From contig MEDY01000207.1 of the NCBI GenBank assembly GCA_001724265.1, positions 1-51,793 on the forward strand: a stretch of DNA of 51,793 nucleotides, written 5' to 3'. The DNA is from Rhizaria sp. SCN 62-66 (lineage: Eukaryota). How positions within the stretch are numbered: the stretch's first letter is position 1; each line of letters starts with the position of its first letter. The translations under genes and the position numbers were made by a program. Below, piece after piece: positions 172 through 32,665 of the stretch. The notes below the pieces were generated by a model, which worked only from the letters and a program-made list of their open reading frames with translations, did no database searches and had not been told where the DNA came from.

Positions 172-177
172 TTGGAG

Positions 178-774: not shown

Positions 775-1899
775 ATGGCTTCAACGGCTGTTAAAAAGGA
801 CTATGTGTCACACCACATGCCCGTGGCGCGCGTCACGGACACTATCCGCGCTATCAAGGGTGTTAGCAAACCGATGGAGCTGCCGTCGGACGTCTACACC
901 ACGACCGAGGCTCCCAAGGTCTCCCGCCAGATGACGACGTCGCGCAAGATTGCCGCCGGCATTATCTTCGCTTCCCACGTCTTCGGCCTTATCGGCGTGT
1001 ACCAGATGCTGACCATGCCCGGGCTCATGGGCCTCAAGTGCTTCATGGGCTGCATGCTCATCTACGTGCTGACGGGCACGACGGGCGTCACGGCCGGCGT
1101 CCACCGCCTCTGGGCGCACCGCTCCTACAAGGCCAAGTGGCCCGCTCGCCTCATCCTCGCCTTCTGCAACACGATCGCGAACCAGTCGTCGATCTACCAC
1201 TGGGCGATCGAGCACCGCGTGCACCACCGCCATGTCGACACCGACGCCGACCCGCACAACATCAACCGCGGCTTCTTCTTCGCCCACATGGGTTGGCTCT
1301 TCGCGCCCCGCACCGACGCCTTCGCCGCCGCGCGCAAGGAGATCGACGACTCTGACCTCCGCGCCGACCCCATCGTGATGTTCCAGGACCGCCACTACGC
1401 CTGGCTGTCGATCCTGCTCTGCTACGTCATGCCCACCATCCTCGGCGCGCCCTTCGTCGGCGGCTCCTACTGGAAGGCCTTCTGCATTTTTGCCATGTTC
1501 CGCTGGACGCTCACGCTGCACGTCACCTGGACTGTCAACTCCGTCGCCCACACCTTCGGCACGCGCCCCTACCGCCCCGAGGAGAAGGCCACCGAGTTCG
1601 CCCCCGTGTCTTTCTTCTCCGGCGGCGAGGGCTGGCACAACTACCACCACGCCTTCCCCTGGGACTACGCCGCCTCGGAGACCTCGGCCGACATCTTTTG
1701 GCGCTTCAACCTCGCGCGCTTCTGGATCGACTCGTTCGCCGCGCTCGGCTGGGTGCACGACCGCAAGGTGCAGCGCAACGTTTGGGGCGTGCCGCTCACC
1801 TGCCCCGGAGAGGCGCCCGTGCCGGCCGGCGCCCACGGCCACAGCCACGGCCACCACGGCGCGCACGCCGCGCCCGCCGTCGCCGAGGCCAAGCAGTAA
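775..1899 (+). CDS. Delta-9 (stearoyl-CoA type) fatty acid desaturase, intronless
   Basis: His boxes HRLWAH, HRVHH and HNYHH; DPHN..RGFFFAHMGW; VNSVAH; hydrophobic segments. First ATG at 775, TAA stop. No fused cytochrome b5 domain. Confidence 0.93.
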   Translation: MASTAVKKDYVSHHMPVARVTDTIRAIKGVSKPMELPSDVYTTTEAPKVSRQMTTSRKIAAGIIFASHVFGLIGVYQMLTMPGLMGLKCFMGCMLIYVLTGTTGVTAGVHRLWAHRSYKAKWPARLILAFCNTIANQSSIYHWAIEHRVHHRHVDTDADPHNINRGFFFAHMGWLFAPRTDAFAAARKEIDDSDLRADPIVMFQDRHYAWLSILLCYVMPTILGAPFVGGSYWKAFCIFAMFRWTLTLHVTWTVNSVAHTFGTRPYRPEEKATEFAPVSFFSGGEGWHNYHHAFPWDYAASETSADIFWRFNLARFWIDSFAALGWVHDRKVQRNVWGVPLTCPGEAPVPAGAHGHSHGHHGAHAAPAVAEAKQ

Positions 1900-2547
1900 G
1901 CAGTCAGTGCACGGTCGATGTCGCTGACGCTGTGTCTCTGCACTTCTCATGATTCATGCGCGTTGATACGTGGGTGATTTATGAGAGTTTTCATGTCAAC
2001 ATTGTCTTAATATGTCCTCTGTCCTCCCTCCTCTCCGTCTTTTGTGCGCGTGGTATCATCTGCAACTCCTGACTGTTTATGTCTGCAATTGTTTACTGAC
2101 GACGCCGCCGCGAAAGCTAACCTCAAGTAATACAACATTGTTCCATTGAACTCCAATGCTCCTCCTCTATCTCTATCTCACATCTCACGCGAAACACTAA
2201 TCAATAAACTACAATGCAATCCGTACATCATGTTGTACATCATGGGATGAAACACTTAAAGCAACAGTGCGGGCTTACTACGGGACACATGGGATAAATA
2301 AACAAACACGAGAGACGCAAAGCAAGTAATGTCGAGCATTGTATGAGATGAAAAAGAATCTAGAAGTAATAGTAGTAGCGGACGCGATGGTGTATTAGAT
2401 CATCAAGTGACAAGCAACACTTGTCTCTCATGCAAGAGCAAGAACTCAAATACCGACTTTATGACAACAGATAGAACGCACAGGCGTGTTGTTTTTCAGC
2501 ACGCCTGACGACGACTACCAAAGTAGCACGAGGCGATGTTTGGGCAC

Positions 2548-3357
2548 TTACGCGACAACCTTCTTGGTCTTGGAAGCCTTGAGGTAGTCGGAGAACTCCT
2601 GGTAGGGGGACATGGGGAGCTCGCCAACCTTCCAGAACTCGGGTGAGAGGAAGGTGTAAGTCTTGCGGAGAGCGTAGAACGCAGCGAAGACGAAGTTACC
2701 GATGGTGCGGGTACGGCCGTGCGAGCAGGTGTAGGCATCGGAGACACCGGCCATGATGAGGACGCGCTTGACGGTGTTGGCAGCGACGAGGCCGGTGCCG
2801 CGGGGGGCGGGGATGATGCGGCAGAGGACGGAGCCGCAGCGGCCGGTGACCTTGAAGGGGACGGTGTGGGGAGCACCGGCACGGGAGCCCCAGTAGCCAC
2901 GGCGGACGGGGATGACGTTGAGCTTAGCATCAACAATGGCACCACGGATGGAGCCGGCAGCCTCCTTAGCGCAACGAACGCCAAGGCCGACGTGGCCATT
3001 GCTGTCACCGACGAGCACCCAGGCCTTGAAGCGAGTCTGCTGACCAGCAGAAGAAGCACGCTGCACGGGCGAGAGGTGGATCATCTCATCCTTGAGCTTG
3101 TCGCCGAGGAAAAAGTCGACGATCTGGTACTCCTTGATGGGGAGAGCGAACAGGAAGATGTCGTCGAGAGACTTGATCTTCTTGTCCTTGACCAGACGGC
3201 CGAGCTTAGTGGTGGGAACCCACTCCTCCTTGCCATCGCGGGCACCACGGCCACGGCCGCCGGCACGGCGGGGGCCACGGCCGCGGCCGCGCTCGTCCTG
3301 GCCGCCGAAGCCGGCCTTGAAACCATCGCGTTGAGTAGGAGCAGCGTCAGAGCTCAT
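2548..3357 (-). CDS. RPS2: 40S ribosomal protein S2 (uS5)
   Basis: RG-rich N-terminus, [46 protein letters not shown]. Confidence 0.98.
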
Positions 3358-3363
3358 TGTCCG

Positions 3364-3632
3364 CTAGAACTGAGAGCGCAAAACAGGGAATAACAAAGGC
3401 GGAGAGGGAAGAACAAGAGATGAGAATAGGACTATAGGTCGGTACAATATCGCCATAAGAAAGAAAGGGACATTGGAAGGCAGGGGAGTGCGCGCAAAGG
3501 GTGGCGAAAAGAAGCCCACCAAAGCGTGAAATGGGCTGCGTCCGGACCCCCGGATACCATCCACAACGCGACCATATGAAAATGCCATAAAGCAAACCAG
3601 TTAGTATACACCATCAGCTGTCAATAACATAC
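3364..3632 (-). other. 5'-UTR intron of RPS2
   Basis: GTATGT donor at 3632; pyrimidine tract and TAG acceptor ending at 3364, 6 nt before the ATG. Confidence 0.6.
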
Positions 3633-3684
3633 ATCAATATATCAACAACGCGACTCTATCATCCATTAAGGCGTCGTCCAAGTC

Positions 3685-3810
3685 TGCTCTCGGGGCCCAC
3701 ACCGCGGACAGAGTGCGGGGGCGACTTAAGTTAAAGTCCTTCGACCAGCCTGACCGTGCTCACAGTCGGTGCCAGTCAGTCTGTACGATCGATCGATCGA
3801 CCGACTTGGA
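3685..3810. promoter_or_regulatory. RPS2 / membrane-protein divergent promoter with ribosomal-protein-type motif
   Basis: GGCCCACACCGCGGACAG (3694-3711) nearly matches the reverse complement of 589-607; GGGGCGAC at 3718-3725. Confidence 0.5.
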
Positions 3811-3927
3811 AGTCACACCTGAGGGTGAAGTGGGGTATATCTGGTGTGAGCTGTAGCAACCGTCCATTGCTTTGGTTTTCTGTTCTTGGCATTAAGTGGC
3901 AAAACACCTGCGTGTTTTATTCACAAA

Positions 3928-6900
3928 ATGCAAGAATCGTATCATAACGCCTTCTTTTCGGACTCGAACGCTGTCGCGTTGAAGCCAGAGGACGCAAATT
4001 CTCTCGCCTCTTCGAACGACTTCTTTGATGTAGACGCTAAGATTGAGGTACGCAGCTCAAGTATACTTTGAAATACTACTTGCAACAGATTATATTTGGA
4101 GATTGCTCTTATATCTTACTATTACCTAGCGCAAATCCTGTCTGTAAATAAGCTCACCGCCAACGTCATTATGTGTATCACATCTCGCCCCTCATAACGC
4201 TGCACAGCCATGTGCTCTCGCTAAAGAGGTGTCTCTCTACCACCGCTATGTGCGTCTGCTGACGGGCATCTCCCCCGTCTGCACCACACTCGCACCTGAG
4301 GCCCGCCGTCCCCCTAGCGAGCTGTTCGCTCGCGCCCCTGACCGCGCTCGCAACAACGACACTAACACAGGTATCAACTCCAGTAGCGGCGCAGCAACGC
4401 CCGCTGTGTCGTCCTCCTTGTCAGTTTCATCTGACTCAACACGGCCCGTGTCCATGACGCATCGCCTGCTTGCGATGTCCCTTAACACGTGGCAAATCAT
4501 CGTCTTCATCCTCGCCGCCGTGGTCCACGCCGTGACGTCGACGCTCATCGCCTTCCACTCCCCCGCCGAGGTGCACCACCCGTTCTTCACGGCTCTAGGC
4601 GCCGCGCTCGACATCCCGCTGGTGTACTTCTCGCTGCACGCCGCGGCGCACTTCGTCCGCCTCTCGCTGCTCCCGCTTCTGACGTCGACGACGCTGTCGA
4701 GCGCCACGGTATACCCCGCCACGCTGCACGAGTGCCGCCGCGCGCTGTCGCGCCCCGCGCTGCTCGCGCTCGCGCTCACCGTCGCCGGCGCGCTTTCGGG
4801 CGCGCACCACGCGCTGGGGCTGTGTCTGCTGGGGGTGGCGGCCGTACGCGTGCCGCCGCTGCCGGGCTGGCTGCCCGCGGCGCCGACGCCCGCGATGGTG
4901 GCCAGCTACCGCGCGATGCTGATGCACCACGCGGGCCTCACATCCACGGGCGAGCTGCTCTCGGACACGTCGCACGCGTCGGCCTTCACGCGCTTCAACT
5001 ACCAGTACTCGTCGCTGGCGACGAACCTGGCCACCGCGCAGGCCGTCTCGGGGCACGAGGTGACGGGCCAGAGTGCGGGGGCGGGGGGACTCATGGGGTT
5101 TAGCATCGTCAACAAGGTTGTGCGCTACTTCACCACGACCAATGACGGCGGCGACGACTTCGACGACGAGGACGAGGCCGAGAGCCTCAGCGAAAAGGCT
5201 AGAGCCAAGGCCACCGCCGCGGCCGCGAGAAAGGCGGCGGCGATGACCAAGAGCGAGAAGGCCGCCGCCAAGGCCTTCATCCGCGCGCTGCACCGGTCGG
5301 AGAAGGGAGAACGCATGCTCACGGTCGCCATGCCGGGAAGTAAGGTCGCCAAGCGCAGCAACGCCGCCGACATGACCCTGTCGCTCAGCTCCAGCGGCAG
5401 AAAGGGCAAGGGTAAGGGCCGCCGGGCGAATTCTAAGGGCAAGGGTAAGGGCAATGGTGGTCGCAGCCGCGGTAAGGGCAAGGGCAAAGGCAAGGGCAAA
5501 GGCAAGGGTAAGGGCAAGGGCAAGGGCAACAAGGCCAAGGCTGCTGTCGATCTCTCTACGACTGCCGCTGCGACTGCCGCTGCGGGCTCTACTGAGCCCG
5601 TTGCCGAGGCCGACGCCGACACCGACTCCGTGATCGACGCGCTCGACGACGACGCTGACGTGGACACGGGCGCGGTGGACGGCTACGACGACAGCGCGGC
5701 CACGAGCACCCTCGCCGAGGCCGATGAGGCTGAGACTGAGACTGACCACGGCCACGACTCTGGTGAGGCTGAGCATGACCCCAGCTCTAGCCCGAGCTCC
5801 ATCACCAGCTTTACCACCAGCGCCGTGGCCGCCGCCAACGCGGTCGGCAGCCCCGCGAGCGCTGACGGCGCGGCAATGGACAGCACGGCAGCGGACGGCG
5901 CGGCGTTCGTGGTGGTCCCGGGCCCTGCGCCGCACATCGGCGGCGTGCCCACGGTGCCGCTCTGGTTGCTGCTGCTCAACATCCCCGCCGCGGCGCTCGT
6001 CGCCATCGCCACGCCGCTGGGCGTCGCAGTCTTTGCCGCCGTTATCGGGCTGCTCACCGCGCGCACGCGGTCGGTGTGGCGCGCGCTGTCATACGACCGG
6101 CTGTGCCCCATCACGTCGGTGCAACCACGCGCCCGCGACATCGACATCTGCCTTACGCACGTCGAGCGCAACTACGCCATGCCCGCATTCATGGTCTTCG
6201 TCATAGTTGCCGTGCAGTTCATCTTCCGCACGCTCGCATACATCACCGACAAGCCCCGTACGTCAGATATCACGCGCCATAATCATGATTTGCTGTATCA
6301 TCCCACTTCTTGCATCTTTTTTATCTAACTCGCGTCTCTGTATATTCCTTGTGTTTCCTTCGACTTATTAACTTCACAGACGACGCGACGGCGCCGAACC
6401 TACCTCAGATGTTGCTGACAGTGGCCATCACCCCCGTGATCCTCTCCTCGCTCGTCCTCTTCACGCTCGCGGCCCTCACGTCCAACATCGCGTACCTCAA
6501 CAAGGTCGTGCACCGCTACTACGTGCAGGCGCGCCTCTACAGCGCGGTCCGCCAGCAGGTCGCCAAGGCGCTTCTCTTAACCTCGGCAGCCGCCACCGCC
6601 AACGCGGCGCTGCCAGACAGCAGCAACAGCAACAGCGGCGTGATCGGCATCGCGATCGCGGTGGCGGGCGCGGTGGCCGCGGCGGCGACCGAGGCGGCTG
6701 TGGCGGGGCTGGAGGCGGCGGACGCGGCGGCGGAGCTCGAGGCCGACTCGGACGACGACTACGACTACGACTACTACACGAACGAGGGCGACGACGACGG
6801 CAATGAGGACGGGGACACCGTCACGAAGCGCAAGGGCGGCGACAAGAAGAAAGGCAAGAAGGGCAAGGACAAGAAGGAAAAGCACCACAGCCACGCTAAG

Positions 6901-7392
6901 GACAAGGACAAGACCAAGTCGGCTGCGGTGTCCTCCGTCGTCTCTGTCTTCAGCGACGACACGGCGACCGTGCTGGGTGACGCCGACGCCGACGCGGACG
7001 CCGCGCAGCCGCAGGAGACCAAGGCTGAGCGCAAGCGCCGCCGCGCCGCCGCCAAGCTGGACAAGCAGCGGCGCCGCGCGGCCGCCACGCTGCCACCCGA
7101 CCCGCCGCTGACGGTGCGCGAATATGAGTCGCACTGGCGCCTGCCCGTGGCGTCGTCGCTGGGCCTGGCCGTGACGGCCGTGGAGCCCGCGGCGTGGTCG
7201 TCATCCTGGCACGAGGGCTCGCGCGAGCACCAGGAGATGCTGCTGGGACAGCTCGTCGACTCGACCGAGCTGCTCGTCGCGTTCCACTTCATGGGTTGGG
7301 AGGTGCACTACTCCACCGCGTGGTCCTACATCGCGGCCGGCGCGGCCTTCTTCTCCAGTATGATGAAGGACAAGGCGCGCGAGCTCATCTAA
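3928..7392 (+). CDS. Multipass membrane protein (~1060 aa) with low-complexity loops; possible 7TM ion channel / gustatory-receptor-like. Exons 3928-4047, 4208-6257, 6380-7392
   Basis: GTACGC/CAG and GTACGT/CAG introns join the ORFs in frame. Multiple hydrophobic helices; C-terminal FHFMGWEVHYSTAWSYIAAGAAFF segment. Confidence 0.75.
5402..5529 (+). repeat. Coding (AAGGGY)n repeat giving a KG dipeptide tract
   Basis: ggtaagggcaagggcaaaggcaag... encodes GKGKGKGKGKGKGKGKGKG. Confidence 0.85.
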
Positions 7393-7677
7393 GCATGACC
7401 CATCCCTGTCCCGTATTTATGTGCCACGTCGAAGGGGGTCAAGCTAGAACCTGAAATTATACTTGTTATATAGAGATTTATTAAAAAACAATCTGAATAT
7501 TATCGCTAACTAAATGAATACAACGATTATGCTTTCAAAACCCAACATGGATGTTATGATGTTAAAGAATACGATGTATTGTACGTAGACATAATAGCAG
7601 AGTGAACAAACCAAACAATCTCTAAAGCATAAATAACTTTCCTAAAAAATCATAATTACAACGAACTCCACACTGCT

Positions 7678-10600
7678 TTAGATGCCGAAGATATCTGCGA
7701 GACTGATCCAGTGATGGCTGAAGCGCTCGAGCAGCGCGTTGACGTGGCGGTGCACCTTGTAGAAGACCTGCTGCTCCTCAACCGTGAGCGTCGCGTCAAC
7801 GGGTCCCAGGGCGCTGGTGGCGACGGCGGCGGCGTTCTTGACGCGCCACTGCTGCTCGGCCTCGATCGCCGTCGCCGCGGCGTCGACGTCGAAGAGCCAC
7901 GCGTAGTACGACACCTGGTTGTACACTGCCGAGTCCGACAGGTCGCGCTTGACGGCCTCGAACGCGGTGTCGTGGCGCCCGCCGAGCGCGCGCAGAGCGA
8001 CCGACGGGTCGCGGGTCGCGTCGTGGCCCTCTGGCTTGAGCTGTGACGAAGCGTAGCGGCGCAGGAGCCCGTGGATGGCGACCGAGAGCGTGTTGCACAC
8101 GACGGTGGCCACAAGGTCAGGGCTCTCGTTCGCGCCGCCGCAGCCCGGCGTGGGGCAGCGGAGCCCGCAGATGCCGCCAGAAGTGGCCGCGCCGCCGGCG
8201 GAGACGGGCGCGACGAGGCGCTGCACCGCCGCCGGGTCCGTGTGCAGGCGCGCCATCAGGAGCTCCATGGTGAGGCCGCTGTCGCCGGTGGCCAGCAGCG
8301 ACTGGCTGGCGCCGCTGGACTTGGATTCGGCGGCCTCGGCCTCGACGAGCGACTTGAGGTGCGTGAGCTGGCTCGCCTGAACGAAGTTGTACACGCCGGG
8401 GTAGTGGTAGCTCACGTCGCACACAGGGCACACGATCTTGAGCGGCGTGCACTGCTTGTACTTGTCGTAGAGTGACGACGCCGAGTCCGCGTCCTCGTCG
8501 TCGTTGCCGAAGACGTCGGAGTAGCTGCTCGCGCCGCCAGACGCGGCGGCGCGCGCGCGACGGAAGCGGCTGGCGTCGAGGCCGAGCGCGAGTGCGAGCT
8601 GCTCGGGCGTGATATCCTCGATGACCTCGCAGAGACGCATGATCGGGGGAAGAATCTGCTGCTCCTTGTAGTACTTGATGTCGATGACGGGTGCCACGGA
8701 AGGGGTGCCTCTCGCCGGCTTCTTCGCCTTGGCGAGCGCGTCGGTGAACGTCGTCTTATGCATCGCACGCTCCGCGATCGAGCCGCTGCCCTCGGTGAAA
8801 ACGTATTCGATGACGTCGTTGACGCGCACAACCTTGCCCTCGTTGATCATGGCGAGCGCGACGTTGACGTGCGGCAGCGCCTTGATGTCGGCGTAGTCCT
8901 CCGGGGGCTTGCTCAGCGACTTTGTCATGACGAACTTGTCGAGCGGCACCTCGCCACTGTCAATCTGCTTGCTCAGCTCCTCCAAGAAGACGCGGATCGC
9001 GCTCACGAGGTCGTCGCGCGCGCGGTCGGCGAGGATCAGCCCGAGCACGTGGTCCGCAGCCTCGCGGGAGATGGGCGCCCAGTCACGGCGCACGGAGTCG
9101 AGACCCTTGGCCGTGCGCTCGAAGCGCAGCAGCTTCTCCTGCGGCGCATACGACTCGCGGTCCACGCGGTACACCGTGGAGCTAGACTGCGAGTCGCGCG
9201 CGTTGATCTTGGCCTCGTCGTCGAACATGTGCTTGTTGCGCTCGTCGATCAGCGTCTCCTCAGTGAGCTTCAGCGCGGCGTACTTCTTCTTCTTGAGCAG
9301 AAGCATCGACTTGAACATACCGTCGTCGCCGATGCGGAGGATCTTGTACGGCTTGTTGATCGCCTTGCGGATGTTGGCAGACTGGTCGCGAGCGAGCTTA
9401 AGCGAGCTGGTGAGCGTGTTGACCATGATCGAGTCGGTATCACCGTAGATGACGCTGCCGCGGAGCACCTCTGCGGTGCTCACAGCGGCCTCGAGTGCGC
9501 GACGGCCCTGCGTGGTGATCAGCGCGGCGATGGGCTGGCAGTAGAAGCGCGACGACGGGAAACCGAGGCAACCGTACATGGAGTTGGCAACGAGCTTGAG
9601 CGCGAGCTGACGGATATTGAGCGACGAGCGCTCGCCGGCGTTCTTCTCGAGCTTAAGCATGTCGCGCACGACCTTACGACGCTCGATAAGATGACCGACG
9701 ACGCCGGGCAAAATACCCGTGGGGATGGCGTTGTTCTCGGCGTCGACGGCGGGCGGCAGCAGCGCGTCCAGGTCCTCGCACCGCACCCAGTGCGTCATGG
9801 TGCTGAAGCAAAGGTTGTACTCGCGGATAATCGACGGGTACAGCGAGTTGAAATCGAGCACGGCGACCCAGGTGTCGTAGAAGCCCTTCTTAGGCTCCAG
9901 CACACGGCCACCAACGTACTTGGCCTTGCCGCGCTTGCGGCTCTTCTTGCCCGAGACGGAGCTGGCCGCGTTGTTGGCCGAGACGTCGTCGATGGGCTCG
10001 CCGTCATCGCCGAGCCCCAGGCGGCGGTCGAGCGCCTCTCGGGCCTCGCGCTCCTTGGCGGTAAGCTTCTCAGGCGGGATGAAACCGGCGCGCGTGAAGG
10101 CGTGCAGCAGCAGGTACTCAACGCGCTCGGCACGGGCGGAGCGCAGCGTGCGCGACCAGAGGTTGCCGCACGTCATGGTGAGCTGCGCGGTGAGCGGGAT
10201 GAGCTCGAGCTTGAACATGAGCGCGAGCTGCACGTGCGCATCCTGCACGTTCATCGTCGCCAGCTCCAGAATCGAGTCGCTGCGGCCGAACATGAGCGCC
10301 GTGGCCGAGGCCGCGACCTCGCGCAGGTTGAGCTGCAGCTGCTCCTGCGCGAGGAACGGCAGCGTGAACATCTTGCTGCCCATGAGGAACTCCTGAGCGC
10401 TCAGCTGCGTGTCGACAAGCAGGCGGCCCGCGCCCGCGCCGGCATCGACGGGCGCCACGTGCACGCTCTCGCGCGGCGGGTTCGTGCGCTTCAGGCGGCC
10501 AATCTTCGACCACTGCTGGCCGACCTTGAGCTGGCGCGCGCGCTGCAGCAGGAGGTCCATGCCCCAGCCGTGGAGGTCGTGCGAGACGATGACGTCGGGA

Positions 10601-12133
10601 TCGCTTGACTCGAGCTTGCGCAGCAAGTGCATCAGGAGGATGTTCTCCGCGTCGAACGCGAGCAGCGCGCCATGGCGGAAGGCGCTGGCCTTGGTCTTGA
10701 AGTCGTGTGGCCATACCATGCCCTTAGGCGGGCGGATAAATGTCACCGTCTCCTTAGCCGCCTCGTCGAGGGTCTTGTTGTCGATGTTGACGCTGTTGTG
10801 GAAGCGCAGCGTCGCAGCCACAATCTCGTGCGTGTTGCTGTTGGGCACCAGCAGCGTCTTGAGCGACAGCGACGCGACCGACAGGTTCGGGCTCGGCAAG
10901 TCGATGCTCACGCTGCCCGCGGCGCCGGAGCTGCTGCCGGCAACAGCGTTGTTGTTGGCGTCGAGCACGGGCGCCTTAAAGAGCGTGACGTCGAACTGCG
11001 ACTCGACCTCGAACTCGAGCTCGCACCACGACACGTGGTTCTTGCGCTGCACGGCAACGGCGTTCTTGATGCTCAGCCACGAGGGACCCTTGAGGCCCTG
11101 GGACATGAGCACGAGCTCGGCCTTGCTGGCGCGGGTGCCGAACACGTGGCTGAACGTCTTGCCCTAAGATTGGAGAACAAGAAGAAAAAAAGATAACAAA
11201 TTGAGATAAGTATTCGCAGTGAGCGTACGCAATAATGACGAAATATGAACGGAGATGTGAGTAAAATAGAACTTATTAGTCCTCCATAGTACGTACCTGC
11301 ATCTCGCGGGGCAGCGGCTCGTACTCGGTCGAATAGAGCACGTGCAGGTACTCCGCGCTAGCGGGGATGATGTTCACGCCATCGAGCAGCGACGCGCGCT
11401 CAGGCGGGATCTCTCCTGGCGCAATGCTGGCAATGACGCCGTCCTCCTCGTCGTCGTCGTCGTCGCTGGGAACTGTCGCCTGCTTGCTCTCGTCGCCGTC
11501 CGCAGCGGCGGCCTTGGCCGCGGCCTTGGCGGCCTTGGCCTTGGCCTTGGCGCTGGCCTTGGCCTTGGCCGCGGCGGCGAGCGTCTCGTCCTCGGACATG
11601 AGCATCTTGCGCCCGAAGCAGTACTTCATCGTCACTGGCTTGGCCTCAATCTCGCTGACGCCGCGGCTCTGCATGAGAGTCTTGACTTCCATGAACACGT
11701 CGCCCGACGTCACCGCGTGTGAGGTCGTGGACTTGGGGTCAGTGGCGCTCGCGAGCTTGAGCCTGCGGGGCAGGATGTGAAGAGAGCGCTTGACGTTCTT
11801 GATCACGACGCAGCAGCTCGCGGTCTTGACCGTCGCCATGTCGACCTTATAGGGCGCGGCGTCCTTGCGCTGGCCCGCGGCGCGAGCAGCGGCGACGAGC
11901 TCGAGGTACGTGTCGCGGGTCATGGCTCGGCCAAACATATACACGTGGCTCGCAGCGGGGTTGACGCCGACGCTAGAGCCGAAGCCGTCGCGCAGCGAGC
12001 GCGCCGTCTCGGTCGACATGGGCTGTGCGTCACCCTCGTACATGTCGTACCAGAAAACGATCAAGTCGTTCAGGTCCGACGCCGCGAGGGCGCCGACAAG
12101 GGAGGCGTCCACAACCGCAGAGTCGGAGGACAT
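7678..12133 (-). CDS. POLA1: DNA polymerase alpha catalytic subunit. Exons 12133-11297, 11163-7678
   Basis: Family B motifs DFNSLYPSII, KLVANSMYGCLG, YGDTDS, LLLKKKKYAAL; Pol alpha-type GKTFSHVFGT and LKGPSWL. Phase-0 GTACGT...TAG intron. Confidence 0.96.
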
Positions 12134-12796
12134 CGCGCAGAAGAGAGCTTGGTGAAGGACTGATGCAGGGGGGTCGGGGGCGCGAGGCGCTGGGATCGTT
12201 GGTGGGCGGAGGAAAGGGACTGTTGGGAAAGGGTAGAAATCACATGTACAGATTGTTTCTTAAGAAATAATTACAAAATACAATATACAATTCACTAAAA
12301 TATCCCGATCTATTGCTATAAATCAATTTAAACGAGTGTGGACGGCGTACATACTGCTTGAGCACTCCCACAACAAGAGGCGCCAAAAGGCTTGAGGCGC
12401 CAACCGAAGTTGAGGTTCAGACTCTAGGAGACCGTGAGCAGAGGTTGGTCTGTCGGCATGGTGCGGTGTAGTGCGGAACAACCTAGTGCGTGTTACCAAT
12501 GAACACAAGCATTGCGTTGGTTATCAATAGAATGTTTTGTGTGTTGTCTTTCCTTGTCTTATTTTGTTGCGCCTCAGCCCTGTGTCCTCCTTTCTCTCTA
12601 GACCACGAAAGTGAGAGGACTGGGACGTTCGTGGTGGCGCAACTTCAGACCCGATATGTTAGGTTTACCAGACACAACACCATCGTATGAGCATGCGCGT
12701 TTCTCGAACTACATATACTCTAAAATAACAATATTAAACTGCAACTCACCAAACCGCTGTCTTGTTGCTGTATTGTCCCGTCTTCAGAAAGCAACA

Positions 12797-14977
12797 ATGT
12801 CCGAGCACAAGGTTGTCGTCGCGACCATCCGCGACTCGCTCTCCACGCTCGTGGCCCTCGAGGTCGCGGTCGCGGCCGGCGTCTCCGCCTCCGTCACTGA
12901 GAGCACCCCGGCCTCCGCCCATGTCGAGACCGTGACCGCCCTGTACGCCGCCGCTGCCGCTGGTTCCGCCGGCAACGCCGCGCTGTCCCTGTCCCCCGCC
13001 GGCGTCCCCGCCGCCGAGGCGTCGTACTTCGCCGCCCTCGCGCTCACGCACCTCATCCCCGCGGGCCGCGTGCTCGACATCCTCGCCGCGCTCAACACGC
13101 ACCTGGAGCTCCGCACCGCGCTGGCCGGCGCCGTCTTCACGGGCCTCGACATCGCCGTCGCCTCCGCCATCCTCACCAACAAGCGCGCCGCCACCGCCGT
13201 CACCGGCGCCGCCGCGGGCGCGACCTACACCAACGTCGTCCGCTGGATCGCTGCGCTCACTGCCCCCGCGACCGCGGCGTGCAGCAACGCCGTCGTGGCC
13301 ATCTCCCGCAAGGCCTTCGCGGCCGCCAACGCGGCGATCGAGGCCAACAACGCGGCCCGCCGCACGGTGCGCGCGCAGCTTTCGGCGCAGGGCTCGTTCG
13401 AGGTCGACCTGCCCGGCGCCGTCGAGGGCAAGGTGGTGACGCGCTTCCCCCCGGAGCCGTCCGGGTACCTGCACATCGGCCACGTCAAGGCGCTGATCCT
13501 GAACCACTACTTCGCGGAGAAGTTCAAGGGCAAGATGCTGCTGCGCTTCGACGACACCAACCCCAGCAAGGAGAAGGACGAGTTCGTGGACAACATCATG
13601 AAGGACCTGCGCACGCTCGGCGTCACCTGGGAGGGCCCCACGTACACGTCCGACCTCATGGAGACCTTCTACGACTACGGCCGCAAGATGATCAAGGAGA
13701 ACACCGCGTACGCCGACAACACTCCCGTGGATAAGATGCGCGAGGAGCGCGCCGAGGGCATCGAGTCCGAGTGCTGCAAGACGCTGAAGCCCGAGCAGAG
13801 CCTCGAGATCTTCGAGCGCATGATCAAGGGCGAGGAGTCCGCTGCGCCGTACGTGATCCGCGCGCGCATGAGCATGGCCGACCCCGTGGGGTGCATGCGT
13901 GACCCGACGCTGTTCCGCACCAACACGACGCCGCACCACCGCCAGGGCACCAAGTACACGTGCTACCCCACCTACGACTTCGCGTGCCCCATCATCGACT
14001 CGCTCGAGGGCGTGACGCACACGCTCCGCACCAACGAGTACCACGACCGCAACGCGCAGTACTTCTGGATCTGCGACGCCTGCGGCATCCGCCGCCCCGC
14101 CATCTGGGACTTCTCCCGTCTTAACTTCCAGTATACGCTGCTGTCGAAGCGCAAGCTGCAGAGCTTCGTGGACCGCGGGCTCGTCGAGGGCTGGTTCGAC
14201 CCCCGTTTCCCCACGCTGCAGGGCATCCTGCGCCGTGGCTTGCTGGTTGAGACGCTCAAGGAGTTCATGATCTCCCAGGGCGCGTCCAAGAACATCAACC
14301 TGATGGAGTGGGAGAAGCTCTGGTCGCTCAACAAAGCCAAGCTCGAGCCCGTGGCGCCGCGCTACAACGCCGTCGACGCCGACACCAAGGTGCGCTTCGA
14401 GCTGAGCGACGTCGCCGCACCCGAGGACGTTGAGACCCCTCTGCACGCCAAGAACCCCGCCGTGGGCGTCAAGAACGTGGTCAAGTCGCCTGTCGTCCTG
14501 ATCGAGGGCAGCGACGCCGCCGTGCTGTCGGTCGGCGAGGAGGTCACGCTGCTATCGTGGGGCAACGCCATCGTCGAGGAGATCGTCAAGGACGCCGCGG
14601 GCAAGATCGTCGCGCTTAAGGGCAAGACCAACGTCGCCGGCAACGTCCGTTCGACCAAGGTCAAGGCGCATTGGGTGGGCTTCCGCGACGAGGCCGAGCT
14701 GGTCCCGCTGAGCCTGGTCGAGTACGGCCACCTCATCAACGTCACCAAGCTCGAGGAGGACCAGTCCGTCGACGACGTCATCAACCACAACTCGAAGCGC
14801 GTCACGGCCGCGCTCGGCGAGGCCGCGCTTAAGGGCCTCAAGGAGAACGACATCATCCAGCTCCAGCGCAAGGGCTTCTACCGCGTCGACCGCGCGCCCA
14901 CGGCGGAGAACCCCAACCAGGAGTACGTCCTCATCCTCATCCCTGACGGCAAGAGCGGCTCCATCAAGACCTGCTAA
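12797..14977 (+). CDS. Cytoplasmic glutamyl-tRNA synthetase with N-terminal GST-like region
   Basis: VVTRFPPEPSGYLHIGH, RFDDTNP, YPTYDFACP, LRTNEY, LLSKRKL, IQLQRKGFY. First ATG at 12797. No ProRS fusion. Confidence 0.96.
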   Translation: MSEHKVVVATIRDSLSTLVALEVAVAAGVSASVTESTPASAHVETVTALYAAAAAGSAGNAALSLSPAGVPAAEASYFAALALTHLIPAGRVLDILAALNTHLELRTALAGAVFTGLDIAVASAILTNKRAATAVTGAAAGATYTNVVRWIAALTAPATAACSNAVVAISRKAFAAANAAIEANNAARRTVRAQLSAQGSFEVDLPGAVEGKVVTRFPPEPSGYLHIGHVKALILNHYFAEKFKGKMLLRFDDTNPSKEKDEFVDNIMKDLRTLGVTWEGPTYTSDLMETFYDYGRKMIKENTAYADNTPVDKMREERAEGIESECCKTLKPEQSLEIFERMIKGEESAAPYVIRARMSMADPVGCMRDPTLFRTNTTPHHRQGTKYTCYPTYDFACPIIDSLEGVTHTLRTNEYHDRNAQYFWICDACGIRRPAIWDFSRLNFQYTLLSKRKLQSFVDRGLVEGWFDPRFPTLQGILRRGLLVETLKEFMISQGASKNINLMEWEKLWSLNKAKLEPVAPRYNAVDADTKVRFELSDVAAPEDVETPLHAKNPAVGVKNVVKSPVVLIEGSDAAVLSVGEEVTLLSWGNAIVEEIVKDAAGKIVALKGKTNVAGNVRSTKVKAHWVGFRDEAELVPLSLVEYGHLINVTKLEEDQSVDDVINHNSKRVTAALGEAALKGLKENDIIQLQRKGFYRVDRAPTAENPNQEYVLILIPDGKSGSIKTC

Positions 14978-15298
14978 GTGGCAGTTGTGCTGTGCGCTGA
15001 TGCGTCAACATTAACAAGGGCGTGAGCTCTCGTTGTGAAGCGATATATGAAACAAAACTTCTTAATTTGAATACATTGCTGCTTTCTTTACTCTGTCATC
15101 ATTGGATTTCACTCCTCAACTGTTATGTTTATGATTCAAGAGAGACCTTTATAAGTCGCAAATTGCGTTTGTGGTTGTGGAATGAAAAAAAGTAGTACGG
15201 CTGGGCGTGGGTGAAGAAGATATTTTCAGTTGAGTGTAGCGTGAGCCAGCATCCGTGTGGACGAGTTTAGCCGAGCTAAATAAGTACTACGTGTTAGC

Positions 15299-17712
15299 AT
15301 GAAGCTGTCTTTCTTTTTACTCTGCGCCCTGGCTGCGCTGAGTCTCGGTGTGATCGTAACTGCAACATCTCTGAAGGAGGCTGCTGCTGCCTCCAGCGCT
15401 GCAAACGCCGCCCGCGTCAAGCAGCAACAGGAGCAACAGCAGCAGCAACCGGACTCGACTTTCTCTGTTAACGCCGACCTTCTCTTTAAGCGCGACCAGC
15501 ACACAGCGTTCCACACCGCGACGGCGCACCGCGACTTCGCCACCCACGCCGAGTTCCTGACGCAGCAGACGGTGCTCTTCTGGCCGCAGCTCGCCGCGCG
15601 CATCGACGCGCACCTCGCCGCCAAGTCGATCCGCGTCGCGCCCGCGCCCTCCGCGGCAAGCAAGCTTGGCGCGACGGGCGTCGCGGGCGTGGAGCCGTTC
15701 ACGTTCGTGGACCTGGGCAGCGGGCCCTGCGCGCTGGGCGCGCTCGTGCTGCAGCGGTACCCCGCACAGGCCACCGTGCAGTGCGTCGACGTCGACCACA
15801 ACCTGCTGCTCAAAGGCGAGCAGCGCTTCCTCCCGTACGCCAACACGCTTGGCGCGGCCGGCGATGTGAGCAGCAAGCAGCGGCTCAACTTCGTGCACGC
15901 CTCGGCCAACAGTACGGGGCTGGACCAGGGCTCGGCGGATATTGTCGTCGCTCAGTTCCTCATCCAGGTACGCAACCACTCGATGAAGCATCAATATAGC
16001 AAGACAACGGGCACACATTCACATATCTTATGCACGCTTTTGAAACTACTTTTTTTTTCTCACTCACAACTGTGCACTTGTGTCTATATATTCACATCTC
16101 TACCATCCTCTTGCCTCCTCCCTTGCGTCTCGCAGCATGTCTACAACCCGCGGTCGGTGGTCGCTGAGGTGACCCGCATTCTCGCTCCTGGCGGCGCATT
16201 CTTTGTCCTCGACTCTGACTAGCACTTGGCCGACGCAGTCCACCCGTCGCCGCCTTCTCTGCAATATGGACAGCAGCTCCATGCTGTGCGCGCAAGGTTC
16301 GTCACCCAATCGTTCACAAAAGCGGAGATATCTCTTTCAGATCGTTTATTATGTCGTCACAACGCGTGTCTCAGCTTAGTAATACCGTGTATTATAGTTT
16401 GGTTGTTAATGTATTCGATCTTATGCTTCGAATCTATTGTTCTCCTTCGCATTTTTGTTCTGTCACCAACAGGCAGCACTTCGCCCAGATCGGTTCCGCC
16501 TCCCTGCTTCCCTGGCTGGGCTCCCTCTGCAAGCACCAGGGCCTTCTCTCCCAGTTCTTCACCCCGGTTACCACCACCAGCGATGACGCCCCCAGTGCGG
16601 CGCTGCAGCAGCTCTGGGACACTGCCCTCCCGCACCAGCAGCTCATCCTCCCGCTCTCCGCCGCCTCCGCAGACTCTGTCGCCGGCGATGGCGACAGCGG
16701 ACTCGCAGACGCGGAGGCCGTGAGCGCGCGCGACCGCTGGCGCGGGCGCTTCCTGACGCTGCTGCACCCGCAGCAGTACTGGGCGCTGACGCGCGAGGGT
16801 GCGGTGAGCCGCGAGGAGCTGCTGCAGGCCATCAAGGTGTACGAGGACTGGGGCCGCAGCGAAGCCGTCGCCGACGAGTTTATCATGCAGTCGTTCGCGC
16901 TCCTGTGGTCCTTCACGAAGCCCGCCGTGGTGGCAAACCGCGCCGCCGCCGCGCGCGAGGAGATCGACGACGACGGCGGCTACCTGCCGGGGTTGGGCGC
17001 GCTCCTTGACTTCGAGCAGAGCATCGAGGAGGGCCGGCTGCGCCAGGAAGCGGCCGACGCGGCCGACGCCGACTCGGCCGACGATCTGTGGGCTGCGCTC
17101 GACCTCCTCAAGTCGCGCGGTAAGGACGGCGACGGCGGCGAGGGCGCGGAGGGCGACAAGGAAGGCGACATGCTCGCCGCGCTGCTCGCGATGATCGGCA
17201 ACGACGGCGTGCTGACCCCGCTCACCGCCAATGCCAACAAGGCGGACAAAGCAAATGGCGACGGCGACGTCAATACTGCGGCCGAGCGGTCGAACGCGGA
17301 GGCCAGCGCCAGCGGCGCTGCTGCTAGTGGCAGCACTCCGGCCCCTGCGAACGTTGAGGAGTTCAAGAAGCGCGTCCTCGACGGGGTTGACGCCATCGAG
17401 GCGCTGACATCGGCCGGAAAGCCTGTTTCGCTCACTGGCGCGCCCACAGGCGCGACCGGCGACGCGGGCAGTACGAAGCCTCGTGCGAAGCGTGCTGCTC
17501 CCGGTGCGATTGGGAGCAGTCGCGGTCGGCTCACTGACGGTGCTGTAGACGCGATGGCGTCGCTCAGCCGGAAGGCCGCTGCGTCGGACGCCGATTTCGA
17601 TGTCGATCTTGATATCGATCTCGGTGACATCTCCGGCGATGATGACGATGACCATGGAGACTATGGTTTTGACAACGATGATGACAGCCACAAGGTCAAG
17701 GATGAGCTGTGA
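15299..17712 (+). CDS. Class I SAM-dependent methyltransferase with signal peptide and C-terminal KDEL; contains in-frame TAG at 16220-16222. Exons 15299-15967, 16136-16296, 16473-17712
   Basis: Signal peptide MKLSFFLLCALAALSLGVIVTA; motif I VDLGSGP, CVDVD, ADIVVAQFLIQH, RILAPGG. The frame continues past the TAG to a phase-2 donor matching the next acceptor. Ends HKVKDEL-TGA. Confidence 0.75.
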
Positions 17713-17981
17713 AAGGGGGGTACATGATGCGTTATGCTCACAAAAATAAGTCACATGAATAAGATTCTCTGGCTGATGGTCAGTCAGACTTTTCACTGGT
17801 CACACTTCGCACTAATCACAAACAGCGTAGTACAATGTAATACAGACGCAGTATTATCAGACAAAACAAAATCTGTGTATACCAAAAATGCCAGAGCAAT
17901 CGTGAAAACGAGGACTACATATAAACGTTTACAGAAACAAATTCAACCTCTCATGCGAATGTGCAAACAATCTCACACCGC

Positions 17982-20900
17982 TTACATCTCGAACGCCAGC
18001 GCGAGGCGCATCATCTTCTCCCTGGTCACGCCCCAAACGGCCGCGCCGGCGTTGTTCTGAAGCACGAACACGGCGGTGTCGTGGCGCGCCGCGTGCACGA
18101 GCGTCGCGGCCGTCTTAGCGTGCTGCAGCCCGTCGTAGTAGGCGTGCTTGCGGGCCGGGATACGCAGCTTGGACCGCAGGAACGGCGACGACGACAGGTG
18201 CTGCCACGCCGGTGAGTGATCGTGTGCGGGCATCACGAACACGAAGGACAGCGGGCCGGGGGACGTCGCGGCGGCCACGGCGGCGGACGCGGCCGCGGTC
18301 GCAGCGGCGGCAGCGGTCTCCTCGGGCGCGGCGGCCGCGAGGCGCTTCTTGGTCAGCGCGACCGGCACGGGGGCGCCTGCGGCAGCGGAGAGGAGCTCCT
18401 CGCAGTGGGCCGCCGCGGCGTACATGTGGTAGTCGTCGAACGGGGGGTTGACTTGGTACGAACCAGACCGCGGCGCAAACTAAATCGAATAAAAACGATA
18501 TAAGAAGGACATTTAAGAATAGACTTCGTGAGGAAAGTGTGATCATATTGTTTTGCGTTATGAGTTGGTGTTTGCCATAAGGAATATCCTTGAATTGAGA
18601 TATATTGAAGCCAAAGTGATTGTTCAACGTACGCGGAAGAAGGAGCCCAGAGAGCCGAAGGGCGCGTCAGTGTCGGGGAACGCGGAGCAATAGCGCGCAA
18701 AGCGGCAGTTGAATGGACTCGCAAATGCTTCCGTAGTGACGCCAAAGTCCTCCTTGAGTGCATCGAAGACCTGGTACGGCAGCGCGGCCTGGTTACCGCC
18801 ACCGGTACTTGTGCCGCCCTGTGAAGAGAAAGAAAGACATAAAATAACACATAAAACAGCAATGTGAGCTATAACTAACTAAAAAAGCAATAAAGATCGT
18901 GTTATATCTTAATTAAATATGCAAACGCCGGAATGTACTTATTTCGTGTTGTTCATACCTGGAGCGACTTGTAGCGGAGCGCGGCGGCGAGCAGGCACTG
19001 CGCGAACTGGTGCGGGAACGGCAGGTGCACGGGCTGCGCCGAGCCGACCTTCCAGCCACCGGAGGGCATCCCGCCCACGGTCTCCGCCGCGGCCGCCGCG
19101 CCGGGGGCCGGGAGTGGGAGGTCGAAGCTGAGCTCCTCGCCGCGCGCCATGGCACCCAGCAGTTGCCGGGTGCTCGACGCTGCCGGCAGCGCGGCCAACA
19201 CCGACGACACGGCCGCGCTGTTGGCGCTCACGCCCGCGCCGCTCGCCGTCGCGTTGCCCGCGGTCGCGCCGTTGAGCGCGGCGGTCACCGCGGCGATGTG
19301 CTTCGACTTGAAGTACAGGTCCTTGGAGGTCTCGAGCGACGCTGGCGCCGGCACCGCGCCCGACGCGGTCTCGCTGGCGACGCCGTAGAAGAGCCAGAAG
19401 AGCTTGATGAAGTGGAAGAGCGTGAGGTCGACCACGAGCGGCGACGGGCGCTGGCCCGCGAAGGGTCCCGGTGGCGGGGGAATGGCGGTGCCCGCGCTTG
19501 CGGCGGCCACGGCGGCGGCCGCCAGCGCCTGGGCAGAGCGCGCCGGGGCGGCCTGCGCGCCCGGGGAGTTGGCCAGGCAGACGCGGATGCGCTTGTGCAG
19601 CAGGGCCTGGGCCAGGAGCGGCCACTTGGACTCCTCTGCGGTGGGCTCAGAGGCCCAGTACTCAAGGACCTACAAACGATGTAGTAGCACAAATGCCATA
19701 GAAACGTAAGATGTACTGAAACAATAACACTGAAATTTCAAAAACAGTCGGGAACATGGGTGTATAATATGCTGAAAGATGCACGTACCGCTACATCACC
19801 GTTGGAAGTGACGAAGGAGCCACCAGTCTTAGAAGCCTCAATAGCAGACGCAGTCCTGCAAGGGTTCCGAGTGACAAAAACAAACAGGTGAAAAATATGT
19901 TAGAAAAGAATGCATGAAGTAAGATGGGGTGAAATCAACGAAGAATCGAGCAATTATTGTTGTGAGCGCGAGTGTGTTTAGTGTCTTGAGTGCGTACCTG
20001 CTCGAAAGCACGCGGCAGACCTCTGCGGCCTCCTGCGGGGTCGCGCCGGCGGCCACGAGCCGGGTGCCAAGCCCGACGTCCGTGGCGACGGCCTCGGTGG
20101 CCGGCAGCAGCGGGTCCGACAGCGCCAGCGAGGGCTGCGTCAGCGGCGCGATGCCAATCGTCGCGCCCGCGGCGGCCATTGCGGCGGCGTTCCGGAGCTT
20201 CTCCTTGGGGTCGCTCGCCTTGGCGGGGACGAGCGCGGCGCCCGCCGTGGCAAGCGCAAACGAGCGCGTCTTGCGCCGCTCCGGGTCCGGCATGCCGCCG
20301 TTGGCGCCGAGCGCGATGGCCCGCCCGTCGCCTTCCACGTCTTCGTCGAACTCGTTCACGCTCTCAACCGCAGCAGCAGAGTCGTCGTCGTCGTCGTCGC
20401 CGTCAGCCCGGGGCGCGGTCTCGGTGACCGTGAGCGCCTTGGCGACGGCGGCGCCCGCGGTCGTGGCGGCGGCCTTGGCGCGGAGCGTCAGGAGCCAGTT
20501 CTCAAACTCGTTGTAGGCGTTGCGGCGGATGAAGCTGTCGGTCTTTTTGCGGAACACCTTGTACAGCTCGTGCACGCCGTTGGCGCGGGCGAGCTCCGAG
20601 AGCACGAGCGCGCGCGGCCCGTTGGCCCATGGCGCCAGCGCGCCGCGCACGCCGCCCGCGGAGGTGAGCACGTCCGAGCTGGGGTCGCGGACCCCGTAGC
20701 CGGCGGCCGAGGACGAGGACGTGGCCGTGGAGGCGGCGCCCGCGGCAGAGGGCACGAAGCGGGCCCAGGGGCCGTGCGTCTCGGCGTGGGTGCGCGCCGA
20801 CTGCTCGCAAACACAGACGCAGACATAGACAAGGATGCAGATGCAGAGACAGAAAGAATAAACAAAGATAATGAGTGATGTGAGTAGAACGGAGATGCTT

Positions 20901-31144: not shown

Positions 31145-32665
31145 TCAGCGACGGAACGAGTTGCCGGACACCGGGGCCCACTTGCTCGACCCGGACTTCG
31201 TGCCCCCGGTGCCGACACCCGCGCCAGGAGCTGGGGCCGGAGCCGGGGCAGGGGCAGCAGCAGGGGCGCTGTTGTTGAGGCCCGGCGGCAGCGGCGGCGG
31301 CATCACTTCGGCGGTCGGCAGCGGCGGCACCGGCGGCGGCGCGCCCAAGTTGTTGCCTCCCGAGATGTTTGCGGTCAGCACGGGCGACGCCAGCGCGAGC
31401 ACCATCGGCGGCGGCACCGACGGCGGCAGCGCGGGCACGGGCGGCAGCGCACCGCCGCCATTGGCACTGGCTCCACTGCTGGCGCCGCCGGGCGCCGACG
31501 TGGGGATCGGCGGCGGCGGCGGGCCGGCCGCGCCGGGCTTGCTGGGCGGCATCGACGGCAGCGCAGGGGGCGGCACGGCGTCCGTGGGCGCCGGCGGCAC
31601 CGGCGGCGGCGCGGCGGCACTGTCGTTGGCGCTGCCGTTAGCGCCGGCAGGAGTACTAAAGGGCGCGGCGGCGGAGACGGCGGGGGGCGCCGAGGCGGGC
31701 GCGAGCGGCGGCGAGGGCACCGGCGCGGGGGGGATGGGCATGGCGGGCATCGCGCTCTCGCGGCGCGGCGGCACAGACGTCGGTACTGGGGGCGCGCCGC
31801 TGTTGGGCGCGTTGCTGCTGCTGCTGTTGTTGTTCGCGCTCGAGTTAGCGGGAGGGAGCGGGGGCGGCGGCGGGGGACCGGGGCGCATGGACGGGCTCGC
31901 GCTGTTGGCGGGGATGGCGGCGACGCCGAGAGACAGCGATGGGAGAGCGGCGGCGTTGTTGGCGGCGTTGGCGTTGTTGTTGTTGTTGTTGTTGTTGGAG
32001 AGAGCGGGGGAGATGTGCGCGTGGAGCGGGGAGCCGATGGGGGACCCCACCTCGTTCTCATCGATCGTGTCGAACGCGCGATGCGACACGCGGTTGTTCG
32101 TGCGGTTCTTGACCACGGGCTTGCTGTGGTGCGTGAGCTGGCTCTGCAGCTGCTTCTCCTCGGCTGTGAGCTTGACGGGCGTGTTGCTCAGGTCCGGCTT
32201 AGCGTCCTTCTTCTTGTCCTGGCCCCACTTGCCGCCCTTGTTATTGTTGCTGTTGTTGTCCTTGGCGGCCGCAGGGGGCGCGGCGGGAACGGGGGGCATT
32301 CCCTTTCTACCGTTTAGCCCCGAGGGCGACGCAACGGGCGCCGCGCGAGGCGAGGCCACGCCGGCGGGCGCCTTCTTGGCCAGGTCGGCGAGCTTCAGAG
32401 GCTCGCCCAGCGGGACCACGCGCGGGGACACGAGCGGGGAGCGCGTGGCGGCAAGATCGGCGGGCGCGACGTTGCGGGAATCTGCGGCAGAGGCTTCGGC
32501 GTTGGAGACGGCGTTGATGACGGAGCGCCAGTAAGACACCTGCGCGGTGTGGTGGGCGAGCTGTTGCGAGGCGTGTACGAGCAGCCACCCCTTGGCGGCG
32601 CTGCAGCCTTCGGAAGCGAGCGCCGAGAGCGCCGCGTCGGACGGGAGCTCGGGGTCGAAATCCAT
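31145..32665 (-). CDS. Proline-rich, largely disordered protein of unknown function
   Basis: Intronless ORF with coding-type codon usage; short helical N-terminus, then many PPPVP/PPxP tracts. Likely start ATG at 32665. Confidence 0.75.
   Translation of the reverse strand: MDFDPELPSDAALSALASEGCSAAKGWLLVHASQQLAHHTAQVSYWRSVINAVSNAEASAADSRNVAPADLAATRSPLVSPRVVPLGEPLKLADLAKKAPAGVASPRAAPVASPSGLNGRKGMPPVPAAPPAAAKDNNSNNNKGGKWGQDKKKDAKPDLSNTPVKLTAEEKQLQSQLTHHSKPVVKNRTNNRVSHRAFDTIDENEVGSPIGSPLHAHISPALSNNNNNNNNANAANNAAALPSLSLGVAAIPANSASPSMRPGPPPPPPLPPANSSANNNSSSSNAPNSGAPPVPTSVPPRRESAMPAMPIPPAPVPSPPLAPASAPPAVSAAAPFSTPAGANGSANDSAAAPPPVPPAPTDAVPPPALPSMPPSKPGAAGPPPPPIPTSAPGGASSGASANGGGALPPVPALPPSVPPPMVLALASPVLTANISGGNNLGAPPPVPPLPTAEVMPPPLPPGLNNSAPAAAPAPAPAPAPGAGVGTGGTKSGSSKWAPVSGNSFRR

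Follow-up and report, generated by a model that had tools for sequence, protein, structure and literature searches.

In-frame UAG codons within otherwise intact genes are known from several systems, which provide the background for a single TAG (16220-16222, + strand) at codon 252 of a 690-codon methyltransferase gene in contig MEDY01000207.1 of Rhizaria sp. SCN 62-66, analysed over its full 51,793 nucleotides (hereafter the window). This TAG is a genuine genomic codon, common to two haplotypes and lying inside a conserved block. It is probably a fixed, recent nonsense mutation, with the codon read as a stop and the product disabled.

UAG-only changes of the nuclear code are on record for very few lineages (PMC5304391). 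UAG means Leu in the rhizarian exLh and Gln in Iotanema spirale, and in-frame UAGs number 384 across 71 genes in one of these UAG-only variants and 204 across 126 genes in the other, or 1.6 to 5.4 per gene (PMC5304391). Their terminators were 56 UAA, 15 UGA and no UAG in exLh, and 104 UAA, 15 UGA and no UAG in I. spirale (PMC5304391). The window is similar in that only TAA and TGA terminators were found and one in-frame UAG lies in a conserved block; however, this is one in-frame UAG in the ~16 genes that the window holds, far from the per-gene numbers of these codes, and its alignment column is not a conserved Leu or Gln.

Readthrough of the tobacco mosaic virus (TMV) type uses UAG followed by the motif CARYYA (CARNBA in yeast), where mutagenesis points to a contribution of every one of the six positions (PMC4132726). 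The window shares with it the CA after UAG and the pyrimidines at +7 and +8, but has C instead of a purine at +6 and G instead of A at +9; it also lacks a stable 3' structure, and its stop interrupts a catalytic fold instead of separating two functional products. In stop-correcting A-to-I editing of filamentous ascomycetes (PMC11156358, PMC10776026), the likeness lies in a conserved gene that looks like a pseudogene, with one in-frame UAG and no other defect, whereas here the A is outside a hairpin loop and nothing points to the organism as a member of that group. In Fusarium graminearum, 70 genes besides PUK1 need UAG-to-UGG editing, and U at -1 and hairpin loops are preferred (PMC11156358).

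With regard to the enzyme, the gene resembles Methyltransf_11/UbiE-like enzymes (PDB 3mgg, CouO 5m58, Coq5 4obw) in the glycine-rich motif I, the acidic residue after strand beta2 and the R-x-L-x-PGG beta5 region, but it represents a rare eukaryotic subfamily with a predicted signal peptide, a C-terminal region of ~200 residues and a KDEL/REEL end. Among genes called methyltransferases, an in-frame UAG is also found as the pyrrolysine codon in the corrinoid-dependent MtmB/MtbB/MttB methylamine methyltransferase genes of archaea and bacteria. The likeness goes no further than the UAG and the name, and pyrrolysine was rejected as a candidate because the window gene is eukaryotic (spliceosomal introns, signal peptide, KDEL), S-adenosylmethionine (SAM)-dependent and of another protein family.

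Gene structure and conservation around the TAG

The methyltransferase gene consists of three exons on the + strand at 15299-17712. Exon 1 (15299-15967, ATG at 15299) has 223 codons and ends in phase 0; its translation runs from a signal-peptide-like N-terminus (MKLSFFLLCALAALSLGVIVTA) over a poly-Q run and motif I (VDLGSGPC) to motif II (VVAQFLIQ) at its end. Intron 1 (15968-16135, + strand; GTACGC...TCGCAG, 168 nucleotides, GC 0.43) contains no in-frame stops. Exon 2 (16136-16296, + strand) reads HVYNPRSVVAEVTRILAPGGAFFVLDSD, then the TAG, then HLADAVHPSPPSLQYGQQLHAVRA, and ends in phase 2; it comprises the end of the Methyltransf_11 core (RILAPGGAFFVLDSD), the TAG with C as the next base, and the conserved HLADAVHPSPPS block, so that the TAG codon (x) is flanked as VLDSD-x-HLADAVHPSPPSLQYGQQLHAVR. 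Intron 2 (16297-16472, + strand; GTTCGT...CAACAG, 176 nucleotides, GC 0.39) has its donor GT at 16297 and is open in 2/3 frames. Exon 3 (16473-17712, + strand) encodes 412 residues, in which a conserved C-terminal region (LLPWL, LLHPQQYWALTR, FIMQSFALLWSF and LLDFEQSIEEG) is followed by an acidic low-complexity tail and the end KVKDEL-TGA (TGA 17710-17712). The first-pass annotation, made from the letters alone, had proposed this model with the phase-2 donor at 16297 and an in-frame last exon ending in KDEL, and both the translations and the alignment of relatives bear it out; all its coordinates were correct, including a small CGACG/CGTCG hairpin at 16231-16249 (+ strand; 5 base pairs, 9-nucleotide loop), which begins 9 nucleotides 3' of the TAG.

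A HMMER search with exon 1 against 1.84 billion representative proteins returned seven proteins, namely P0003, which is the window's own open reading frame (ORF), and six relatives (P0004-P0009) with 36-43% identity. A spliced translation, built by script from the window coordinates with the stop written as X, was aligned to the relatives and is colinear with all six over both junctions. At junction 1 the window has FLIQ|HVYNPR and the relatives FVFQ|HLYxPR without an insertion; at junction 2 the window has AVRA|R|QHFAQIGSASLLPWL and the relatives ALHSARHATGLTSGNLFRWL, continuous across AVRA|R|QHFAQIG. The TAG sits in the conserved block D-x-D-[T/M/E]-x-x-x-D-x-x-x-P-x-PPT. Directly after its column, x-x-x-D-x-x-[YFW]-P-x-PPT is present in 5/5 relatives that reach the region, and since this motif matches in the window without a shift, the zero frame after the TAG is the coding frame. 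As the frame of exon 3 is open from 16219 on, a frameshift at the TAG was also considered, and it was rejected on the same ground. An in-frame stop in a reading frame of 690 codons that is conserved and otherwise open is no chance ORF artefact.

The alignment of relatives, where the first-pass annotation had called for one of orthologues, gives T, T, M, E and E at the TAG column; the column is variable, so there is no hint of a special residue at this position. The searches for longer or closer proteins came back empty: exon 3 (residues 1-160) had no match of 226-721 amino acids in a 5.8-billion cluster set, exon 1 had no match among longer proteins (392-2000 amino acids), and the close-relative search with P0003 found only P0003 itself. 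Consequently, no close orthologue was found. P0003 (307 amino acids) is a prokaryote-style ORF call that reads through intron 1 and ends at the TAG. The share of mononucleotide shuffles without an in-frame stop is 0.089 for intron 1 and 0.046 for intron 2, and it is the openness of the intron that allowed a prokaryote-style gene caller to yield the 307-residue product.

Occurrence of the TAG in other contigs and haplotypes

The window comes from a metagenome, and 12 of the 13 listed runs (9 studies) contain part of it. The check was made on assembled contigs, not raw reads, with runs X6-X12 (small shares) left out. A contig of run X1 (depth ~36) covers 15000-18000 and one of run X3, from another study, covers 16005-16805, both with 0 differences; X1 and X3 are each possibly the source of the window. 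A contig of run X4, from a third study (2025), covers 15081-16669 with base differences at 15238, 15694, 15913, 16035, 16069 and 16584 and with base 16103 deleted. Over its four pieces (2,478 bases covered), X4 has 12 base differences and one deletion, none of them at 16220-16222, and it therefore represents a distinct haplotype sharing the TAG. In addition, a Joint Genome Institute (JGI) metagenome contig (L001, 2,431 nucleotides) is identical to 14436-16866 of the window, TAG included, and the 307-residue ORF ending at the TAG is recorded on 7 contigs. A longer, TAG-less version of this ORF was found neither among proteins of 168-538 amino acids nor among the 1.84 billion representatives. 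Metagenome assemblies do have single-base errors, but the same base stands in contigs of three studies (the distinct 2025 haplotype included), in the JGI contig and in the ORF of 7 contigs. A sequencing or assembly error, or a rare allele taken up by the assembler, is accordingly extremely improbable, and the sequencing error that the first-pass annotation had allowed for is excluded by the TAG in the contigs of X1, X3, X4 and L001.

Methyltransferase family and the position of the TAG in the fold

The PF08241 (Methyltransf_11) profile of 95 positions is covered at 2-70 by exon 1 and at 72-95 by residues 1-24 of exon 2. Taken alone, each exon scores below the cut-off (17.2 and 16.7 bits vs 21.2; E-value 0.0081 for exon 1), and the profile is matched by all 6 relatives (best E-value 9.8e-19). 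Judged from its PF08241 membership over the beta1-beta5 core, the gene product is a class I SAM-dependent methyltransferase. The NCBIfam matches all lie far under their cut-offs. A profile of the relatives matches 31 solved methyltransferases; the best of them, 3mgg_A (276 amino acids), was aligned only to its residue 146 at the TAG column and has 130 further residues beyond. An AlphaFold model of the relative P0008 has strand beta5 at residues 204-213 and the TAG column at T217, which places the TAG four residues past strand beta5 of the class I core. This model has a mean predicted local distance difference test score (pLDDT) of 52 and is confident for residues 100-213 only, with values <50 after residue 215. 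A complete seven-stranded class I fold needs the elements after beta5, namely alphaE, beta6 and beta7. The first-pass statement that stopping at the TAG would truncate the methyltransferase is upheld: the TAG lies inside the conserved core, and the conserved C-terminal 438 codons would be lost.

The family is rare, with 6 relatives among the 1.84 billion representatives, and the only label found is a generic 'UbiE'. Its common layout is a signal peptide, the Methyltransf_11 core, a conserved C-terminal region of ~200 residues (pLDDT <50 in the predicted model) and a KDEL/REEL end; the KDEL of the window has its counterpart in the KDEL or REEL ends of two relatives. The window product is predicted to be a class I methyltransferase targeted to the endoplasmic reticulum (ER) by its signal peptide and KDEL, and the family as a whole looks like an ER-lumen SAM-dependent methyltransferase.

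Haplotype differences and transcription downstream of the TAG

The two haplotypes differ at 7 coding positions in all, over 405 synonymous and 1,217 non-synonymous sites covered. The differences E132 and S205, upstream of the TAG, and D314 and G672, downstream of it, are synonymous; S491P, D680Y and S682N, also downstream, are non-synonymous, and all three fall in the tail, where conservation is poor. If only the part after the TAG is counted, the ratio is 2 synonymous to 3 non-synonymous (P = 0.36), which has no power. Contigs of a poly-A RNA library (X5) were found at 15473-15723, 16938-17177 and 17164-17453, with 15808-16918 uncovered; their presence on exons 1 and 3 is a hint that the gene is transcribed.

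Apparent skip joints from 15445-15447 to 16938-17127 were rejected, as their sides of 20-23 letters, which lie in low-complexity CAG and GAC/GGC repeats, stem from other sequences. The poly-Q CAG run at 15420-15450 is shared by many unrelated 31-letter contigs, with depth spikes up to 1,730, and it also leads to false skip joints with the GAC/GGC-rich stretches of exon 3.

In-frame TAGs, terminators and introns in the window

Pfam-supported genes in the window include those for a fatty-acid desaturase, uS5, DNA polymerase alpha, GluRS, a PCIF1-like protein, WDR75, Nup85, SURF6 and RRN3. The methyltransferase TAG is the only in-frame TAG in ~11,700 stop-to-stop ORF codons of the window, with none in the 9 Pfam-supported ORFs (~6,300 codons) and none in the other long ORFs. 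A six-frame codon classifier trained on the Pfam-supported ORFs (144 of 148 training windows right) was applied to the 145 TAGs that have 40 TAA/TGA-free codons on each side, a screen that leaves out the methyltransferase TAG because intron 2 lies within 40 codons. Only one TAG was scored as sense on both sides, at 32839-32841 (-) with an upstream margin of 0.03; it probably lies a short way before the 5' end of the gene at 31145-32740 (-) and not in frame within it.

Putative terminators were taken from long-ORF ends, including those at 1897, 2550 (-), 7680 (-), 14975, 17710, 29931, 33224 (-), 38665 and 45036. Five C-termini are independently verified, namely DNA polymerase alpha, GluRS and SURF6 by profile ends, uS5 by PDB alignments and the methyltransferase gene by its KDEL. 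Among the 13 ORFs whose last 30 codons are coding-scored, 8 end with TAA, 5 with TGA and none with TAG. The lack of TAG at terminators, observed despite a GC content at third codon positions (GC3) near 0.9, hints at TAG avoidance, although the sample is small. Neither tRNA genes (ARAGORN) nor Rfam families (0 matches) were found in the window.

Three introns are definable in the window and begin with GTACGC, GTTCGT and GTACGT, and the same GT[A/T]CG[C/T] occurs at the ORF ends 39398, 41644 and 49166. GTACGT is the donor of the DNA polymerase alpha intron (11164-11296, -). The introns of this organism are AT-rich, ~130-176 nucleotides long and have T-rich tracts, and most of its genes are single long exons. 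The source organism is an uncultured, GC-rich, intron-poor eukaryote of wastewater/bioreactor metagenomes. Two stretches of the window, at ~39500-41300 and 45000-49300, have lower GC (0.45-0.56), no long coding-like ORFs and no Rfam or tRNA matches, and they may be intergenic or contain genes with many small exons.

Explanations for the in-frame TAG

We favour a fixed, recent nonsense mutation, with somewhat better than even confidence, because it is the commonest explanation for such a pattern and because decoding as sense was unsupported by any test run; the first-pass annotation had kept this only as a fallback, and it now becomes the most likely reading. The TAG would have arisen by a single-base change from a sense codon, with GAG (Glu, found in two relatives at this column) one step away. 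Translation would end after 251 residues, four past beta5, and the truncation would remove the conserved C-terminal region and the KDEL, leaving a non-functional product; we infer both the termination at the TAG and the inactivity of the truncated product. The gene would then be a unitary pseudogene of recent origin, or else the sampled populations would be fixed for a loss-of-function allele, and full-length protein, if any, would come only from basal near-cognate misreading at the weak UAG-C. The locus resembles unitary pseudogenes and fixed nonsense alleles in that the gene is intact except for one premature stop, which falls in a conserved domain and is present in the DNA of several samples and in two haplotypes.

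Several observations weigh against a nonsense mutation. Unlike in a typical unitary pseudogene, there is no second lesion and no sign of decay: the start codon, both splice sites, the 689 sense codons and the KDEL are intact, and exon 3 keeps its codon bias (GC3 0.91 over the first 200 codons). The coding changes between the two haplotypes number 4 synonymous to 3 non-synonymous vs ~1:3 under neutrality (P = 0.07), and the depth of the poly-A RNA library is similar on exon 1 and exon 3, although DNA may be present in this library. Furthermore, the 15 putative terminators comprise 8 TAA, 7 TGA and 0 TAG, which has P = 0.035 if the true TAG share is 0.20, and the base after all 15 is a purine (9 G, 6 A) vs the C after the methyltransferase TAG. 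The lesion-free gene and the codon bias of exon 3 are as compatible with continued use as with a very recent mutation, and all the points in this paragraph are also to be expected after such a mutation.

Among the ways of decoding the TAG as sense, functional readthrough deserves the most attention, though it is unlikely. Near-cognate tRNAs (Gln, Tyr or Lys) would read a leaky UAG-C at a tolerant loop position, so that the cell would obtain less full-length enzyme with its KDEL, yet enough to be of use. At +4, where the 15 putative terminators have purines, this TAG has C, the leakiest base in that place. Termination stringency depends strongly on the 3' base (PMC4132726, PMC9272376), and Gln, Tyr and Lys, which are inserted at UAG in yeast (PMC4150775), should be tolerated in a column as variable as T/M/E; the gene is also otherwise intact, its TAG is common to two haplotypes, and RNA-library contigs are present 3' of the TAG. 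However, the 3' hexamer CACUUG fits CARYYA/CARNBA at 4/6 positions and fails at 2/6. The hairpin is part of the minimum free energy (MFE) fold of 16205-16296 (computed without pseudoknots on the unspliced sequence), but these 92 nucleotides fold at -22 kcal/mol vs a shuffle mean of -24.97 (z +0.92), and equal or greater stability is reached by 161 of 200 shuffles, so the hairpin does not stand out from chance. With the stop halfway through the catalytic fold, no useful short isoform results, unlike in known dual-product readthrough, and the +4 C is the first base of a conserved His codon, so that selection is not needed to explain it. The programmed readthrough suggested by the first-pass annotation is therefore left with the +4 C as its sole favourable feature. 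Reassignment, in which UAG is not a stop in this organism but a rare sense or unassigned codon (an early or low-usage UAG-only change) and only UAA and UGA terminate, has a slim chance. TAG stands at 0/15 ORF ends and 0/13 coding-scored ends, the same TAG-free pattern as in exLh and I. spirale (PMC5304391), but 0/15 would also arise by chance with P = 0.09 to 0.21 if the TAG share were 0.15 to 0.10. No second in-frame TAG accompanies that of the methyltransferase gene in the ~11,700 ORF codons, five long conserved proteins included, which goes against the reassignment route of the first-pass annotation; a GC3 near 0.9 should favour a G-ending sense codon, were UAG usable, and the window has no tRNA gene, and so none with the CUA anticodon that had been proposed for a search. 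Taken more broadly, the idea that the organism dropped UAG as a terminator and decodes a rare in-frame UAG into a full-length methyltransferase, by early low-usage UAG-only reassignment or by organism-wide UAG-C leakiness, has a small chance, and it stays alive because TAG terminators are missing and a purine uniformly follows the true stops. As it stands, the first-pass inference that the UAG is decoded as sense is unsupported (no other in-frame TAG, CARYYA at 4/6, hairpin z +0.92).

Two further explanations place the correction in the mRNA. Restorative A-to-I editing would turn UAG into UGG (Trp), as in filamentous ascomycetes, and is very unlikely here. The correction of premature stops is documented in F. 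graminearum with U favoured at -1 (PMC11156358), a base that every UAG supplies, but the MFE fold puts the A in an unpaired stretch between two helices and not in a hairpin loop, Trp occurs at the TAG column in no relative, and the RNA-library contigs do not reach exon 2. The organism bears no mark of a filamentous ascomycete. Introns of ~130-176 nucleotides, GT[A/T]CG[C/T] donors and a GC3 near 0.9 are not known to be typical of that group. Alternative splicing that removes the TAG, either from a donor at 16169 to an acceptor at 16476 or by joining exon 1 to 16223, is hardly to be expected at all. On paper, GAG|GTGACC at 16169 (phase 0) and the second AG of CAGGCAG (16475-16476) are in frame, and the AG of the TAG itself is a possible phase-0 acceptor. 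However, 0/6 exon 2 GTs upstream of the TAG fit GT[A/T]CG[C/T], and every in-frame skip deletes motifs that are invariant in the relatives (R-x-L-x-PG, D-x-D), so that function would not be rescued; no splice joints were seen, but the RNA contigs do not cover the region. The GTGACC donor near 16169, which the first-pass annotation had named as a way out, is thus unlike the donors of this organism, and its use would delete conserved motifs.

Meaning for the organism and the family

If the nonsense mutation holds, the locus would be another pseudogene of recent origin, here of an uncultured protist, and it would carry the caution that a clean in-frame stop in a conserved domain is, alone, no evidence of recoding. 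If the UAG were decoded instead, an organism in which in-frame UAGs are nearly absent and UAG terminators are missing would illustrate how such a code change begins, and organism-wide UAG decoding, if true, would represent a new nuclear code variant, still incipient and with the codon in very sparse use. In either case, the rare, unannotated methyltransferase family with its signal peptide and KDEL end is a candidate ER-lumenal SAM-dependent enzyme and a small question in its own right.

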